DNA from: Escherichia phage ECML-606-1
Strand: one strand, 5' to 3'
Sequence record: OL631484.1
Length of the DNA stretch: 64,000 nucleotides
The notes below the pieces were generated by a model that worked only from the letters and a program-made list of their open reading frames with translations, did not search any database and had not been told where the DNA came from. Below are positions 53,765-59,469 of the stretch, one piece after another. The position numbers and the translations under genes were made by a program. Each line of letters opens with the position of its first letter. Position 1 is the stretch's first letter.

Positions 53765-54010
53765 CTAATTAACGTCTTTCACCTTCCTACCGAAGCGCTC
53801 CACGCACGCGAGAAACGCCTCCTGTTTCGTGTGGCAATACTCCGACAGCATCGTGGAGTGTTTGCCGTCATGAAACTGGATCTCCCACTTCGCGGATCCG
53901 GTCTTTGGCGGGCCGGGCCAGTCAGCGGCGGCGTCGTATACCGCCTGCTGCTCCGGTGTCATCTGGAAACTCAACGGCCTGCTGCCTTCTTGAGCTCCAT
54001 GACGATGCAA
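53765..54010 (-). CDS. hypothetical protein
   Basis: 81-aa ORF, first of a co-oriented block of small genes. Confidence 0.3.
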   Translation of the reverse strand: MHRHGAQEGSRPLSFQMTPEQQAVYDAAADWPGPPKTGSAKWEIQFHDGKHSTMLSEYCHTKQEAFLACVERFGRKVKDVN

Positions 54011-54411
54011 TGAAGCGTGTCCAGCTGTTCATCGGTCGCATGACTCAGCAGCTGGCTCAGGCCAAATCCACCGCTCATTTCATTCTGGATAACGCTGCGC
54101 ATCGCTGCCTTGCGCTGCTCGTAGGCAAAGTCAGCCTCGTCACGGTAAACGTCAAGCGCCGGATATCCACTGGTCTGCGGGACGTGGTTACGATTCCCCC
54201 AGTCCTTAATGGCAATGCGCTCCTGCCAGCATTCCGGCACGCTATTGCTCTCTTTGGCGCGGTCAATGTCTGATTGCCGGGCGACGTAAAGCCATTTGGT
54301 TCCTTTGCGGACAACAATCATGATCCCGCGTGGAGGGCTGCGCCTATCGCGCGGGCCAATAAACAGGGTGTCGCCAGATTTCAGGGCTTTCAGGTCGGTT
54401 TCTTTCAGCAT
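53971..54411 (-). CDS. hypothetical protein
   Basis: 146-aa ORF in small-gene block. Confidence 0.3.
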   Translation of the reverse strand: MLKETDLKALKSGDTLFIGPRDRRSPPRGIMIVVRKGTKWLYVARQSDIDRAKESNSVPECWQERIAIKDWGNRNHVPQTSGYPALDVYRDEADFAYEQRKAAMRSVIQNEMSGGFGLSQLLSHATDEQLDTLHCIVMELKKAAGR

Positions 54412-54421
54412 GGGGGAATCC

Positions 54422-54850
54422 TTAAATTTTGATTAAATGGGCTTTGTGAATACGCACGGTGCCGTAACTGTAGCGGCCTTTCTTGCGGATATTCAGCTCG
54501 TAATACTGCCGGAAGTCGATCCCCGGCTCATTCCAGTTAAGAGTCACGAAAATGCCATGGACGTGCAGGACATCCAGCGGGCGATCATTGCCACGGATAA
54601 ATACGCGGTCGCCTGGCTTGAGCTCCTGCTTGGTGGATTGCATCACCTCCAGCGCAAGATCAGCGTCTACCTCAGTCGCATGGTAGCCAGCCTGCCACGT
54701 ATACCAGCCATTCGCGCCAGCTGCGCGGATATGGTTTTTAATTGAGTTGATCATGGGTTGGTTCCTTAAATGCCGCATCCCTGCGGTGTGGTTATTATGC
54801 TGCGATACCGCGCTGCCCGGTGCCGATTGCCAGACGAGCCTTGCGGTCAT
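54422..54850 (-). CDS. hypothetical protein
   Basis: ORF in small-gene block; true start may be internal Met. Confidence 0.3.
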   Translation of the reverse strand: MTARLVWQSAPGSAVSQHNNHTAGMRHLRNQPMINSIKNHIRAAGANGWYTWQAGYHATEVDADLALEVMQSTKQELKPGDRVFIRGNDRPLDVLHVHGIFVTLNWNEPGIDFRQYYELNIRKKGRYSYGTVRIHKAHLIKI

Positions 54851-55400
54851 AGTGCCCGATCAGGCCCATGGTGATCAGGATGCCAGCCGCCAGCGAAATA
54901 ACGACGAGCAGAATGACCAGCTGCGCCTGCTTACTGTCTTTGCTGTCTCCGCCCTTGAATAGCTTGCTCACGCTATCCCACGCGCCGGACACTCCACCAT
55001 TAGCCGCGTTGTAGATGTTGTGGGCGCTGGCGAATGTGTTCCATGCTGCTGCCCCCATGTTGGCCCAGTTGCGTTCCCGGTATGCCACGATCCAGCTATG
55101 TACAGTGATCAGCAGCCCTGTACCGATAGCCGGGATAATGATGCCCAGATACCAGAGGCTGATTGCCGCCTGCGCATATTTCTCGTCGAGGTGCCCGGTA
55201 AGGTACGCCGCGTATACTTCAATGAAGATAATCACGCTGGAAAAGCCGATTGCGGCCTGAATAGCTCCGCACCAGACCAGCACCCGGATCCAGCCGCCAA
55301 GGCGTTTGGACTCGGCCCACATCGTCCCGCAGGTCTTGCAGTTGAACCAGCTGATCAGCAGGTTGAGGGCCAGAATTCCCCACAGCATTAACATTCCCAT
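54795..55400 (-). CDS. polytopic inner-membrane protein (unknown; possible superinfection exclusion/host interaction)
   Basis: Four to five hydrophobic helices; start placed at Met cluster MGMLMLWG. Confidence 0.35.
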   Translation of the reverse strand: MGMLMLWGILALNLLISWFNCKTCGTMWAESKRLGGWIRVLVWCGAIQAAIGFSSVIIFIEVYAAYLTGHLDEKYAQAAISLWYLGIIIPAIGTGLLITVHSWIVAYRERNWANMGAAAWNTFASAHNIYNAANGGVSGAWDSVSKLFKGGDSKDSKQAQLVILLVVISLAAGILITMGLIGHYDRKARLAIGTGQRGIAA

Positions 55401-55443
55401 TTTGTTTCCTTTGAAAAGTGCCGGGAGCCGCCCGGCGCGGTTG

Positions 55444-55662
55444 TTATTTATCTTTCTCGCGGTTGTAGCGCTCATGGGTTAGCAGATCCCATGTATCGCC
55501 ATTATCCCGGCTCAGCAAACGCCAGCGGATGCCGACCTTTAACGAGATACCACCGCTGCGCTTGAGGTGGGTTATTGCTGCCTCTCCGCGCTGCCACATT
55601 TCCAGAATCTGCCCGGCTTTTATCAGCGCCTGAGCGGGAATTCCTTTCATTGCCTTGAACAT
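55444..55662 (-). CDS. hypothetical small protein
   Basis: 72-aa ORF whose ATG abuts a hairpin-U-run. Confidence 0.3.
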   Translation of the reverse strand: MFKAMKGIPAQALIKAGQILEMWQRGEAAITHLKRSGGISLKVGIRWRLLSRDNGDTWDLLTHERYNREKDK

Positions 55663-57388: not shown

Positions 57389-57524
57389 CAGGAATCCTTT
57401 TAGGGTTGGTTAAATAACCCGTAACGCACCGCGCTACGGGGCTTTATTGCTTGATGCGTGGTTGATGATACGTTATGCGTGACGTAATGCAAGTATTATT
57501 TACGCCACTGCTGACGCATGGAGT

Positions 57525-57546
57525 AAAAAAGGCCCCGTAGGGCCTT
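57525..57546 (-). terminator. intrinsic terminator
   Basis: GGCCC-tacg-GGGCC hairpin followed on minus strand by U6; same hairpin family as at 31.25 and 41.9 kb. Confidence 0.5.
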
Positions 57547-57632
57547 CGCTTATTTACTGTAAACGGGGCTCAGACCATGATCTGAGTGCCCGTGTCCTGC
57601 TCCCCCGGTCGGGGCATTCCATACCGGGGCTT

Positions 57633-59048
57633 TCACTTTGGGGCAGTGGTAGGCTTCGGCTCGACCGACGCTGGTTTGCCTGGCTGATTGCGGATCGTGG
57701 TAGCCAGCGCTCCCGGTCGCGTCGCAAAGTAGGTGTAACGCCATTTCCCGGTCTGGGTCTCCCAGTATTTCACGCGCCAGCCTGAATCCTGATCTTCCCA
57801 CGCCTCAGAGTAATACGCGGGCTTAGAATCGTTATCAGCATTGCGCTGCGCGATAGCTGCGGCCTCTCCGGTCGGCTTCCAGCCGTGCAGGTTGATCTCC
57901 TCACCTCCACGGTTCTGGATATGGCGCTGGTATTCAGCGCGAAGGGTGTCCTCAATTCTCGCCAGCTCAGCGGTTGCCTTACGGCCTGCTGCCGTACAGT
58001 AGAAGTGTGTCAGCTGCTCGAAGCGGTCAAAGCCGTTGGTCATGTTCAGGAACACTTTGGCCTTGCGGTCATACATCAGCTGGAGGTGTGGCTCCATCCA
58101 TCCCTGCGTCGGGCGCTCTTTCATGTGAATGTGATACTCAGCCGTTTCTGTCCGGTCGTGCGGGATCACATCCAGACGGTACAGATAGCCATGACGCCAG
58201 CAGCGCTTGTCTGTACGCAGGGTGCCATCGCTCAGCTCCTCCTCCGCGAGCTCCAGACGTTTCTCGCTGCCCGGCTTCACATCGGACAGGCCCAGCGAAA
58301 CACGGCGGTGGACTTCCGCGATCATGCGCTGCGTCGTGTAATGGGGTTGCAGGGTGATGACCAGACCGCTGATTTTGGCACGCAGCGGGGCCAGCGGGTG
58401 CAAGCGCTTCACCACGTCCTCAATGGTTTCATCGCGCTGCTGCAAATGCAGCTGCCCGGACTCCAGCGGCTCGTAATCATCAGGGGCGGCGTGATCCAGT
58501 GTCAGCGCATCGACGGTCTTACCCTGCACCATACGCATACCACGGCCCAGCTGCGGGGCATGTACTACCTGACTAACAGCCTCTTTCTGCTGCTCGGTCA
58601 GCTCAGGCTCCTCTACCGCGCGGGCCATCAGCTTTTGCAGGTCTGGGGTTGGGTTGGCTGGCGCTTCCAGCACTTCCTGAGGCACGACTGGACGCGTGCC
58701 ACGGCCTGCTAATTGTACCCAAGGCTCACCGCCAGAAGGGAATCGGTCATTCAGATTGAGCACGTACTCAGCGTGGGCGAAGGCATCAGCCAGAGTCATC
58801 ACCGGATCGATGTGAATGGTCTTGCCGTCATAAATCAGGTCAATGGGTTGGTTTGCAGCGACGGCACGGCCTACGGCGTTCAGGAGCGCTTCACCTTCTG
58901 CGGCGTGGAGTTGAGGCACTTCTTGCTGCTGGGCTTTTACCATTTCCAGACAGGACATAAACGACTCAGCTTTTGCCTCAGTAAACTTCTCATTGTGCAG
59001 GGCGTTAAATACAGCAACAGCGCGGGCAATAACGGATAATTTCGACAT
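57633..59048 (-). CDS. hypothetical protein (471 aa)
   Basis: Large ORF with RBS AAGGA; no motif recognised by eye. Confidence 0.4.
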   Translation of the reverse strand: MSKLSVIARAVAVFNALHNEKFTEAKAESFMSCLEMVKAQQQEVPQLHAAEGEALLNAVGRAVAANQPIDLIYDGKTIHIDPVMTLADAFAHAEYVLNLNDRFPSGGEPWVQLAGRGTRPVVPQEVLEAPANPTPDLQKLMARAVEEPELTEQQKEAVSQVVHAPQLGRGMRMVQGKTVDALTLDHAAPDDYEPLESGQLHLQQRDETIEDVVKRLHPLAPLRAKISGLVITLQPHYTTQRMIAEVHRRVSLGLSDVKPGSEKRLELAEEELSDGTLRTDKRCWRHGYLYRLDVIPHDRTETAEYHIHMKERPTQGWMEPHLQLMYDRKAKVFLNMTNGFDRFEQLTHFYCTAAGRKATAELARIEDTLRAEYQRHIQNRGGEEINLHGWKPTGEAAAIAQRNADNDSKPAYYSEAWEDQDSGWRVKYWETQTGKWRYTYFATRPGALATTIRNQPGKPASVEPKPTTAPK

Positions 59049-59067
59049 TAAAGCATCCTTTGTTCAA

Positions 59068-59469
59068 TTAATTTTCTTGAAACAGCTTGTTGATTTCCAG
59101 CATTGCGGTACGGATAAAATCGCAATGCGCTTTATTTCTTACCAGACTGACGTTATTTTGACGCTCTAACTTTTTGGCTACCTCCATCACTAATTTCAGG
59201 CTTTCAACGTTTGCGTTAATCTCGCATTCACGTTCTGCGGTGATCTCTGCCCACTTCTGGCCTACCGGGCGAACATGACGGCGCTCATAACGGTTTCCGC
59301 CCTCATACTCCCCGTTATGTTTGTAAAACTTCACGCCAGCCACGACGAACGTGTTTTTATAGACACGATCAACGTTTATTTTGCGGTACACGTTGAATGT
59401 GTGTGAGCCGGGAACATCCACGCGCTCAGTAATTAAAACAACATCACCTTTCTTAACATTCTCGAACAT
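59068..59469 (-). CDS. hypothetical protein
   Basis: 133-aa ORF whose ATG abuts hairpin-U7. Confidence 0.35.
   Translation of the reverse strand: MFENVKKGDVVLITERVDVPGSHTFNVYRKINVDRVYKNTFVVAGVKFYKHNGEYEGGNRYERRHVRPVGQKWAEITAERECEINANVESLKLVMEVAKKLERQNNVSLVRNKAHCDFIRTAMLEINKLFQEN

Follow-up and report, generated by a model that had tools for sequence, protein, structure and literature searches.

The gene block at positions 53765-59469 (minus strand) of the 64,000-nucleotide stretch analysed here (the window) appears, on balance, to be a mosaic island of accessory genes in an Enterobacter myovirus of ~95 kb. Its genes would form three units headed by promoter motif A and belong to a pre-late programme, unlike the adjoining ADP-ribosyltransferase (ART) gene and the virion genes. 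One of its genes, g11, also appears to yield a second, longer protein by a programmed -1 frameshift, which would be new.

Organization of the gene block

The window is 94.5% identical to Enterobacter phage phiT5282EW, and the PHROG and Pfam maps revealed the sheath, baseplate, portal, terminase and major capsid protein families as well as a lysis cassette. The block extends exactly from the stop of its last gene (g1) to the start of its first (g12), and contains the following genes:

59068-59469, minus strand: g12, 133 aa, basic, no family match, dN/dS 0.08
57633-59048, minus strand: g11, 471 aa (zero-frame product), present in all relatives examined
57092-57388, minus strand: g10, 98 aa, phrog_7033, four invariant Cys (CxC...CPxC), zinc-ribbon candidate
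56643-57095, minus strand: g9, 150 aa, acidic (pI 4.7), phrog_10705
56390-56653, minus strand: g8, 87 aa, phrog_6245, patchy distribution
56085-56393, minus strand: g7, 102 aa, phrog_1239 and weak DUF7739
55718-56083, minus strand: g6, 121 aa, no family match
55444-55662, minus strand: g5, 72 aa, mini RelE/ParE-fold toxin-like protein without a conserved partner gene
54795-55400, minus strand: g4, 201 aa, membrane protein with 4 predicted TM segments, phrog_37671, single-gene insertion between g5 and g3
54422-54754, minus strand: g3, 110 aa, no family match
53971-54411, minus strand: g2, 146 aa, borderline Phage_ProQ_C_like (25.8 bits against a cutoff of 27)
53765-53962, minus strand: g1, 65 aa, directly upstream of the ART gene in all relatives examined

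The block is real; however, it holds 12 genes rather than the about 14 of the initial annotation, and the '14 hypothetical proteins' of a relative include two flanking genes. All 12 are under purifying selection (dN/dS 0.05-0.35, with phiT5282EW and a ~54-89% identical relative as references). Three genes are trimmed relative to the longest-ORF calls, g1 to 65, g3 to 110 and g4 to 201 aa. The genes are co-oriented as described, but this is not specific to the block, because every gene between 5.3 kb and 64 kb of the window lies on the minus strand. They are also tightly packed, but the supposedly frequent 4-nt overlaps occur at only two junctions (g10/g9 and g8/g7); one junction has an 11-nt overlap, and the remaining ones are gaps of 1-55 nt and one of 244 nt. 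The block is flanked by a ParB-DNA-methyltransferase on one side and, immediately downstream, by a 2257-aa 'polyvalent' protein with a C-terminal ART domain on the other.

The 471-aa protein, the polytopic membrane protein (g4) and the zinc-ribbon candidate (g10, with invariant C3, C5, C81 and C84) named in the initial annotation are all present. The putative lipoprotein also exists (62547-62846, lipobox VASC), but 3 kb outside the block. The statement that no gene is recognisable by motif was not quite correct, since g5 matches Pfam PF24732 above threshold, g2 falls just below its cutoff and g7 has the weak DUF7739 match.

Promoters, hairpins and transcription units

The arrangement of promoter-like sites and hairpins suggests that the block consists of three short transcription units (g12-g11, g10-g6 and g5-g1), each headed by motif A, a sigma70-like promoter family whose near-palindromic spacer is conserved. 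The relevant features are:

59528-59555, minus strand: motif-A promoter before g12, TTGATG-16-AATAAT, spacer GCGTCAC-N6-CGTA
59474-59501, minus strand: terminator-type hairpin whose U-run continues into the start codon of g12, dG -15.2 kcal/mol, z -4.2
57523-57546, minus strand: intrinsic terminator right after the stop of extended g11, GAAGGCCC-tac-GGGGCCTT followed by U6, dG -14.9, z -3.6
57465-57523, minus strand: two tandem motif-A promoter-like sites before g10, the second TTGCAT-16-TATCAT
57418-57440, minus strand: leader hairpin before g10, dG -17.0, z -3.1, weak U-tract
55693-55721, minus strand: motif-A promoter before g5, TTGACA-17-TAATAT, 10/12 matches
55668-55692, minus strand: terminator hairpin with U6, directly next to the -10 box and extending into the start codon of g5, dG -16.4, z -5.9
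53753-53765, minus strand: motif B, GTCGTGATGCCAC, overlapping the g1 stop and upstream of the ART gene

Motif A was observed five times in the window against 0.7 expected, always on the gene strand and intergenic, and four of the five sites are inside the block. A PWM scan of the whole phage type found exactly eight sites, half of them in the block and two next to the divergent control region, where the leftward operon begins. The site before g12 is kept in the relatives L001, L004, L005 and L007. The ART and virion genes carry motif B instead, found ahead of the portal gene and of several other genes in the virion module (near 37.7, 34.5, 27.3, 16.3, 13.8 and 7.6 kb). Motif B is kept in L002, in L004-L007 and as far out as the Yersinia phage; in Aeromonas phage ST4 it lies upstream of an uncharacterised gene.

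The four terminator-type hairpins, placed between the units or in front of them, have dG values of -15 to -17 kcal/mol and z scores of -3 to -6, and two of them are conserved at syntenic sites of the Yersinia phage. The hairpin before g12 has the same architecture there, and the hairpin with a T-run after the g11 tail stop is also found in L001, L003, L004, L007, L014, L006 and the Yersinia phage. It is replaced in L005 and L015 by the ribosome-binding site and start codon of the next gene, directly after the g11 tail.

Gene content among the relatives

The block is a mosaic, in which a conserved core (g11, g7 and g1, the only block genes shared by all seven relatives examined) is interleaved with dispensable cassettes swapped among close relatives: g10-g8, g4, g3-g2, and a 97-aa gene absent from the window. 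The presence/absence table shows that gene content differs even between near-identical relatives, as expected of accessory genes. For example, g10, g9 and g8 were lost together in L004, and g12, which has a 35% homolog in the Yersinia phage, is missing from L006. The g4 protein is a horizontally mobile membrane protein: it is absent from L005, L015, L006 and L002, its relatives in Pseudomonas, Aeromonas and Burkholderia phages are 53-63% identical, and in L005 and L015 the genes on either side of its insertion site share a 4-nt overlap. It is not the holin. The g11 gene is an intragenic mosaic and belongs to a lineage-restricted family.

Possible virion association of the products

The strongest alternative, which we still consider unlikely, is that g12-g11, g9, g7 and g1 encode virion cargo, or helpers that load the ART protein and the ParB-methyltransferase into the capsid in the manner of P1 Dar, with the g11 tail as an assembly or targeting element. 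In its favour, the homologs of g11 (gene 119), g7 (gene 123) and g9 (gene 122, C-terminal part) are labelled 'particle associated' in Yersinia phage fHe-Yen8-01, as are the ART toxin and both methyltransferases; these labels would fit virion cargo better than early effectors. The label nevertheless covers many proteins encoded in the non-structural part of that record, including both methyltransferases, so lysate carry-over is possible, and no publication or data were found behind it. In every relative, the block has a protein of this labelled kind on each side. C-terminal extensions made by frameshifting typically belong to phage structural and assembly proteins (lambda G/GT, T7 10A/10B), which would fit the g11 tail; however, the tail motif was found in no other protein, and therefore it is not a shared targeting signal.

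Giant polyvalent proteins were predicted to be packaged and injected (PMC5512222), and the block resembles the P1 Dar and polyvalent neighbourhoods (Iyer et al. 2017) in having a giant multidomain protein and a ParB-methylase beside small unknown genes, and in that particle association is claimed for several products in a relative. Unlike in P1 Dar, no DarA, Hdf, DdrA or DdrB domain was found, nor any MuF or other packaging-related domain. The promoters of the block are also of motif A, whereas the ART and virion genes use motif B, and a need of the small proteins for packaging is conjectural. Moreover, homologs of g7, including Sf6 gene 22, are located in lambdoid early-left (PL) operons, far from virion genes. 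The g9 homologs also include gp25 of Burkholderia phage JC1.

The predicted frameshift in g11

The end of g11, whose AF2 model is poor (pLDDT 56), contains the following features:

57636-57642, minus strand: slippery heptamer C_CC.A_AA.G, with the zero-frame stop TGA (57633-57635) directly behind it
57603-57629, minus strand: predicted GC-rich hairpin 6 nt after the heptamer, a possible frameshift stimulator
57550-57636, minus strand: -1 frame extension, 28 codons (VKAPVWNAPTGGAGHGHSDHGLSPVYSK) and TAA, predicted frameshift product 499 aa

The heptamer, stop and -1 tail occur in the window and in L001, L003, L004, L005, L007 and L015, and A_AA.G with the stop and tail in L014. Five lineages have the tail in the -1 frame and two (L006 and L002) have it in frame, and this combination of heptamer, stop and conserved tail points to a programmed -1 frameshift. 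Among the -1 motifs measured in E. coli, C_CC.A_AA.G is the most efficient (PMC4066793). Ribosomes stopping at the TGA would release the 471-aa protein, whereas a -1 slip with tRNA-Lys on the heptamer would add the conserved 28-aa C-terminal tail, and the frameshift might set the ratio of the two forms. The hairpin is kept in four of the five lineages, without compensatory changes (no covariation).

The tail might instead be a micro-ORF read from a GTG overlapping the stop, or a decaying C-terminus that was once in frame, but both are doubtful. AAG-TGA does hold a -1-frame GTG in the window, L005 and L007, and the two in-frame lineages make a frame-disrupting mutation conceivable. However, L015 and L014 have GTA as the codon that follows the slip site, and L015 has no ATG, GTG or TTG between the upstream -1-frame stop and the tail, so that no start codon reaches it. 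The tail (28-32 codons) is free of stops in all five -1 lineages, its substitutions favour the third codon position (36/31/77), and the shift-prone A_AA.G and stop are kept in all five. The transcript terminator also follows the tail stop, not the zero-frame stop, in most of these lineages.

The predicted frameshift is similar to T7 gene 10A/10B, lambda G/GT and dnaX tau/gamma in its X_XXY_YYZ heptamer, which belongs to the most efficient class in E. coli, in the predicted hairpin at the usual distance downstream, in the two predicted nested products with a common N-terminus, and in a shift site kept across diverged relatives. Unlike in these systems, the g11 site directly adjoins the zero-frame stop, the extension has just 28 aa and is in frame in some relatives, and the protein is lineage-restricted, uncharacterised, and neither a tail nor a capsid protein.

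The RelE/ParE-fold protein g5

The g5 protein folds like a RelE/ParE toxin and matches Pfam PF24732 (ParE_like) with an E value of 1.8e-16. R48, H63, E64 and Y66 are invariant, and no sequence similarity to solved toxins was found. It is a stand-alone, trimmed member of the fold and would most likely act as an mRNA endonuclease on the ribosome; a ParE-type (gyrase) activity or an inactive scaffold is also possible. Cleavage of mRNA would then shut off the host or turn over mRNA, much as T4 RegB does, which shares the fold, has an early promoter and has no known antitoxin. Compared with RegB and the RelE, HigB, YoeB and YafQ mRNA interferases, g5 is only 72 aa long and has one N-terminal helix instead of two. 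Its Pfam class is also ParE-like, and ParE toxins are gyrase poisons rather than mRNA cleavers.

The fold and Pfam match, the labels of some homologs (HigB, TA component or plasmid maintenance killer) and the circular deposition of the closest record would suit the toxin of an addiction or abortive-infection module, with g6, g4 or g3 as antitoxin, in phage-plasmid stabilisation or phage exclusion. This is quite improbable: g6, g4 and g3 have no detected antitoxin-type domain, g5 has a promoter separate from g6, neighbours of its homologs are unrelated across phages (the next gene is g4 in the window, g3 in L005 and L015, and the g1 homolog in the Yersinia phage), a scan of 10 larger proteins from the rest of the genome gave no partition, integrase or repressor function, and the Yersinia relative is a free phage from sewage.

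Role of the gene block

The initial annotation described an 'early-region style' island. Regulatory and comparative grounds partly support its accessory, non-late look; however, some 26-31 kb separate the block from the divergent control region upstream, and the late module adjoins it directly, so 'early' is at best early or middle. Expression before the late genes is suggested by the promoter classes; the motif-A site at 45605, inside the late region, and the adjoining late genes run counter to a pre-late reading.

The closest parallel is the PL early-left operon of P22, Sf6 and HK620 ('moron' or ea-nin type). It also has small co-oriented genes of unknown function, in cassettes with their own promoters and terminators that are present or absent between close relatives, and it shares homology with the block, through g7 and Sf6 gene 22 and through g5, whose homologs lie in PL operons of lambdoid prophages and temperate phages. 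Unlike these regions, the block belongs to a large myovirus of apparently virulent type, is flanked by DNA methyltransferases and by the gene of an injected-type polyvalent toxin, and has promoters of a phage-specific family in which the near-palindromic spacer is conserved.

An anti-defence role, as suggested in the initial annotation, is conjectural. No block protein matched anti-restriction, anti-defence, defence or superinfection-exclusion families (Pfam, PHROGs, PADLOC, NCBIfam and PDB sequences) or known host-takeover families. Matches to families with ordinary structural or replication roles were likewise absent. The most likely role of the block would be in host interaction or takeover, rather than in virion building or replication.

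Gene content and genomic setting

The block between the ParB-methyltransferase gene and the ART gene, which encodes a 'polyvalent' protein with an ADP-ribosyltransferase domain, is a real accessory island, ordinary in kind, and its anatomy has been resolved. Two of its features are without earlier description: a solo mini RelE/ParE-fold protein (g5) and a conserved putative -1 frameshift in an orphan gene (g11). Gene calls for 53765-59469 were based on those of Enterobacter phage phiT5282EW and on conservation, and gave 12 genes, listed in transcription order:

59068-59469, minus, g12, 133 aa
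57633-59048, minus, g11, 471 aa
57092-57388, minus, g10, 98 aa
56643-57095, minus, g9, 150 aa
56390-56653, minus, g8, 87 aa
56085-56393, minus, g7, 102 aa
55718-56083, minus, g6, 121 aa
55444-55662, minus, g5, 72 aa
54795-55400, minus, g4, 201 aa
54422-54754, minus, g3, 110 aa
53971-54411, minus, g2, 146 aa
53765-53962, minus, g1, 65 aa

All 12 genes are genuinely coding, since their dN/dS values were 0.05-0.35 both against phiT5282EW and against a more distant relative. The initial annotation had described about 14 small co-oriented genes, tightly packed and often overlapping by 4 nt. The block itself was recovered, but with 12 genes, only two 4-nt overlap junctions and a looser packing than claimed. 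Its co-orientation is no special property, because every gene from 5.3 kb to the window end lies on the minus strand; in phiT5282EW, leftward transcription begins at a divergent intergenic region at ~81.6-81.7 kb. The 471-aa protein and the polytopic membrane protein that had been pointed out correspond to g11 and to g4, which has four predicted transmembrane segments. The proposed zinc-ribbon protein is g10, whose four Cys (CxC...CPxC) are invariant in seven homologs including that of Yersinia phage fHe-Yen8-01; however, its matches to Pfam DZR_2 and DUF6980 (E 0.006-0.011) are under their cutoffs. The statement that no product is recognisable by motif holds for most of them in terms of function, but not for g5, which is clearly assigned. 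A putative lipoprotein "nearby" also exists as a candidate, but it is encoded 3 kb from the block. The features around the block include:

62919-63791, minus, MT-A70 methyltransferase with a Cys-rich C-terminal extension, upstream of the block
62547-62846, minus, 99-aa protein with signal peptide and lipobox (LVASC)
59552-61063, minus, ParB-N6/N4 (N6_N4) methyltransferase fusion, upstream of the block
46959-53732, minus, 2257-aa protein with C-terminal ADP-ribosyltransferase domain (Alt-like / ART-PolyVal in relatives), directly downstream of the block
39268-41883, minus, large terminase, unusually long, 871 aa
38752-39267, plus, 171-aa ORF, antisense inside the leftward structural module
38467-38542, plus (opposite to the virion genes), single tRNA-Asn (GTT), within a large non-coding interval that separates the terminase gene from the portal gene
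27278-28147, plus, 289-aa ORF (phrog_16819), antisense inside the leftward structural module
5354-7513, holin-endolysin-spanin cassette

Along its whole length, the flagged stretch shares 94.5% identity with phiT5282EW, whose record (95.5 kb, circular as deposited) has all genes annotated "hypothetical". A plasmid database search with the window gave no match, and the literature on 'phiT5282', where its context was checked, concerned a different phage, phiT5282H. PHROG and Pfam scans of the larger ORFs identified a contractile-tailed phage, with tail sheath, baseplate, tape-measure/lytic protein, major head protein, protease, portal, large terminase and tail fibres. The N-terminal ~230-aa region of the large terminase matches a separate terminase PHROG (phrog_2, residues 25-222), and may be a fused or duplicated domain. 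The two plus-strand ORFs may be morons.

The ART-PolyVal family is also matched by the ART protein of a relative, and the prediction for polyvalent proteins is packaging followed by injection alongside the DNA (PMC5512222). The first ATG of the ART gene has no Shine-Dalgarno sequence, and the true start may be the second ATG, 4 codons downstream. A 180-aa gene overlapping the start of the ParB-methyltransferase gene has a weak small-terminase match (phrog_1206, E 1e-3). A strong terminator hairpin (62867-62889) stands ahead of the lipoprotein candidate, which shares only 66-76% identity among otherwise near-identical relatives. Outside the window, phiT5282EW encodes at 68131-69468 (132-1469 of its segment L013) a 445-aa protein with a YadA-like outer-membrane anchor (PF03895, E 2e-12), an adhesin-type domain that is unusual in a phage gene.

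Comparison with related loci

Seven loci were compared, from two IMG/VR contigs, three Logan assemblies (L005-L007), phiT5282EW and fHe-Yen8-01 (L002); two contigs (L014 and L015) were added later for the frameshift analysis and the gene-content checks. Between the ParB-methyltransferase and ART genes, g11, g7 and g1 were the only genes found in every relative examined. A single gene, g4, is inserted between g5 and g3, and these two overlap by 4 nt in loci that lack it; g10-g8 are deleted in L004, a relative of 94-100% identity; and g3 and g2 are absent from the two most distant relatives. Relatives also have additional genes (97 aa, 77 aa, 56/60 aa and 31 aa) that are absent from the window. 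These genes, g4, g10-g8 and g3-g2 vary, whereas the flanking genes are constant at 86-100% identity; the block, like moron-like cassettes, is polymorphic in gene presence among close relatives. The g4 protein shares 53-63% identity with proteins of Pseudomonas, Aeromonas and Burkholderia phages, which otherwise share little with the block. With this variable content around g11, g7 and g1, the locus has the pattern of an accessory region whose genes are shuffled horizontally about a small conserved core.

An insertion hot spot is the g11-g10 gap (57389-57632), as seen against L004, L005, L007, L014, L015 and L002. In relatives this gap holds a 97-aa gene (MSLKDHQN..., Cys-containing, a homolog of Yersinia phage gene 120) and sometimes a 56-60-aa gene; the insertions are missing from the window, phiT5282EW and L003. 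In the Yersinia phage, gene 122 (L002 9904-10995, 363 aa, 'particle associated') shares ~150 nt with gene 121, and its match to g9 is confined to the C-terminal 144 aa; the remaining N-terminal portion may have been mis-called or may be an additional domain.

Regulatory anatomy

The sigma70-like promoter family of the block (motif A) has the core CGTCAC-N6-CGTA, followed by a TAAT-like -10 box. A -35 element (TTGACA, TTGCAT or TTGATG) is located at the correct distance, and the best copy is TTGACA-17-TAATAT. The window contains five copies against 0.7 expected by chance, all intergenic and on the gene strand: upstream of g12, g10 (two copies) and g5, and a fifth at 45605. A weight-matrix scan of the whole phage type found exactly eight copies, two of which are 0.6-1.5 kb from the divergent control region. 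An operator is suggested by the near-palindromic spacer (ACGTCAC-N4-TGACGT).

Just ahead of the ART gene, the g1 stop codon is overlapped by a second type of element (motif B, GTCGTGAYGSCAC). Its copies are:

53753-53765, minus, motif B
37654-37674, minus, motif B
34479-34491, minus, motif B
27258-27270, minus, motif B
16314-16326, minus, motif B
13757-13769, minus, motif B
7547-7559, minus, motif B

The distance from motif B to the ART gene is 10-35 nt, and the element also stands ahead of the portal gene and of several other genes in the virion module. All relatives, the Yersinia phage among them, retain the ART-gene copy, and Aeromonas phage ST4 has one upstream of an uncharacterised gene. 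Within this phage group, motif B probably acts as a late promoter or operator.

Four terminator-type hairpins (dG -15 to -17 kcal/mol, z -3 to -6) were found before g12, after g11, before g10 and before g5. Those before g12 and after g11 are retained at the syntenic sites of the Yersinia phage, despite protein identities of 35-73% in this region. From the motif A sites and these hairpins, the block reads as three units: g12-g11, g10-g6 and g5-g1. As in moron-like cassettes, a host-type promoter of its own and a flanking terminator are present. All three units are under the motif-A regime, and the motif-B regime starts exactly at the downstream edge of the block; motif A would be "early/middle" and motif B "late".

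A probable, conserved -1 frameshift in g11

Alignment of the g11 homologs revealed that three distant ones end in ...W-N-A-S-T-G-G-A-G-H-x3-D-x2-L-N-P-V-Y-S-K. The same peptide is encoded in the window in the -1 frame, directly after the g11 stop, as a 28-aa tail with the pattern ...W-x3-S/T-G-G-A-G-H-x3-D-x-G-L-S/N-P-V-Y-S-K-COOH. At the junction (GCC CCA AAG TGA) a heptamer abuts the stop codon:

57642-57636, minus, C_CC.A_AA.G slippery heptamer, in the window and six relatives

It is a zero-frame, shift-prone motif of the X_XXY_YYZ or Z_ZZN type, and the predicted -1 junction peptide is TTAPK-VKAPVWNAPTGGAGHGHSDHGLSPVYSK. In E. coli assays C_CC.A_AA.G was the most efficient -1 heptamer (up to 54% with a pseudoknot), and A_AA.G the best -1 tetramer (PMC4066793). 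Heptamer, stop and -1 tail are also found in phiT5282EW, the two IMG/VR contigs and three further lineages (54-73% identity), and L014 (41% identity) keeps only A_AA.G and the stop. The tail has 28-32 stop-free codons, in the -1 frame in five lineages and in frame in two, the Yersinia phage and L006.

The tail is most readily explained by translation through a -1 shift, because no start codon precedes it in L015, its substitutions fall mainly on third positions, and the terminator follows the tail stop. In L015 the stop is TAA and the next -1 codon is GTA, so that no start codon reaches the tail and a separate micro-ORF is excluded there; in L004 a -1-frame stop lies 9 codons upstream of the heptamer. 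Tail substitutions by -1-frame codon position number 36/31/77. The terminator is placed after the tail stop and not after the zero-frame stop in the window and most relatives. The -1 extension is conserved, stop-free and coding in signature, and in L015 it is beyond the reach of independent initiation. A GC-rich hairpin (57629-57603) begins 6 nt after the heptamer (z -1.9) and is kept in four of five lineages without compensatory changes; it overlaps conserved Pro and Gly-Gly codons. It shows no covariation, and may be a stimulator of the shift. Taken together, the comparisons make it very likely that g11 yields 471-aa and 499-aa forms by -1 frameshifting.

The g11 family is very small: it had 20 matches among 5.8 billion clustered proteins, and when 1.84 billion representatives were searched exhaustively by HMM there were only 28, three of them full-length clusters. 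No Pfam domain was detected in the family or in ten remote matches scanned, and a profile search of PDB sequences gave no match. An AF2 model built on 15 aligned sequences was of low quality (pLDDT 56, pTM 0.23), and Foldseek with this model found nothing in the PDB below E 0.39. Against one relative g11 is a mosaic: residues 1-189 are 83-98% identical and the remainder 24-72%, with neighbouring genes at 99-100%.

One proposal, which we consider improbable, is that g11 would be a fast-evolving modular effector whose N- and C-terminal halves recombine independently. In this proposal the tail would switch the activity or destination of g11, and might do so by targeting it to the capsid or portal, by docking a partner or by acting as a degron. 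The ribosome would set the ratio of a cytoplasmic form to a packaged or injected one, and the latter would work with the ART protein and the ParB-methyltransferase. If true, this switch would be a new kind of phage cargo-sorting device.

The RelE/ParE-fold protein g5 and other products

The one clear assignment among the block products is g5, which has the RelE/ParE alpha/beta fold, with the N-terminal helix or helices on a 3-4-stranded antiparallel sheet. The candidate catalytic residues R48, D53, H63, E64, Y66 and N67 are invariant in an alignment of nine homologs. As in YoeB and HigB, an H-E-x-Y motif follows the last strand. PDB searches with the single sequence and the profile gave chance-level matches only, and the matches to sialidases and Ycf48 reflect only an Asp-box-like SxDxGxTW hairpin. 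A protein homolog search returned only six matches with uninformative names. Proteins of the g5 type are very small, partner-less and widespread in enterobacterial phages.

By analogy, g5 may be a RegB-like shut-off nuclease. Its toxin fold could also serve toxin-antitoxin addiction; this is less likely because there is no conserved partner. The genes that flank g5 homologs in the window, in L005/L015, in the Yersinia phage, in a Klebsiella prophage and in a Murrayvirus differ without cross-similarity, and no adjacent co-conserved antitoxin was found among them. Antitoxin domains were not found in g6, g4 or g3.

Function searches in Pfam, PHROGs, PADLOC, NCBIfam and PDB sequences left most block products without function. 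The g7 protein belongs to a widespread small family (phrog_1239, weak DUF7739), which includes gene 22 of the Sf6 PL early-left operon; its homolog search gave 11 matches with uninformative names. The g2 protein scored 25.8 bits against PF24203 (ProQ/FinO C-terminal, Tudor-like; cutoff 27), and its homologs in L005 and L015 (35% identity) likewise have a 'weak' ProQ-C-like score. The g9 protein is acidic (pI 4.7), and Burkholderia phage JC1 encodes a homolog, with replication genes on one side and packaging genes on the other. PDB sequence searches with g2, g4, g7, g9 and g12 gave chance-level matches only, and an Rfam scan of 53-60 kb gave no match. Paralogy of g2, g3 and g12, which share a 'KxGDxxxI' start, was rejected (hhalign probability <=14%); g4 as a holin was also rejected, given the holin-endolysin-spanin cassette at 5354-7513.

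Early island or virion cargo

The block had been proposed as an early-style island with host-takeover, superinfection-exclusion and anti-defence functions. This idea gains real, though indirect and partial, support from the motif-A class, the terminator-bounded cassettes, the variation in gene content, the PL-operon homologs, and the toxin-fold and mobile membrane proteins. It is weakened by the position of the block at the boundary with late genes, the "particle associated" labels in the Yersinia phage, and the absence of any anti-defence match: Pfam and PHROGs assigned none of the 12 proteins to known anti-defence, anti-restriction or defence families (Ocr, ArdA, KlcA, Acr etc.), and PADLOC and NCBIfam gave no defence match for the ten proteins scanned (g2-g7 and g9-g12).

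A serious rival, if a rather unlikely one, is that the conserved core is virion cargo or has a role in cargo loading. In the GenBank record of fHe-Yen8-01, "particle associated" is the label given to the g11, g9 and g7 homologs, and also to the ART protein and both methyltransferases. No publication behind these labels was found, nor any on fHe-Yen8-01, and the breadth of the labelling makes carry-over plausible. Moreover, the block lacks motif B, the mark of the ART and virion genes. The g11 tail as a targeting signal common to other proteins was rejected, because its motif is unique to g11 and was found nowhere else in the genome.

The block represents typical, well-resolved "dark matter" beside phage counter-defence genes. 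The putative g11 frameshift site would be a clean system for asking what role a 28-aa C-terminal tail plays, and motifs A and B split the genome into regulatory classes, which could guide promoter mapping. These phages (phiT5282EW, fHe-Yen8-01, Dolphis and ST4) form a poorly studied group of ~90-95-kb myoviruses. Current ideas are not overturned; rather, the annotation is refined for a group whose records consist almost entirely of "hypothetical protein" entries.
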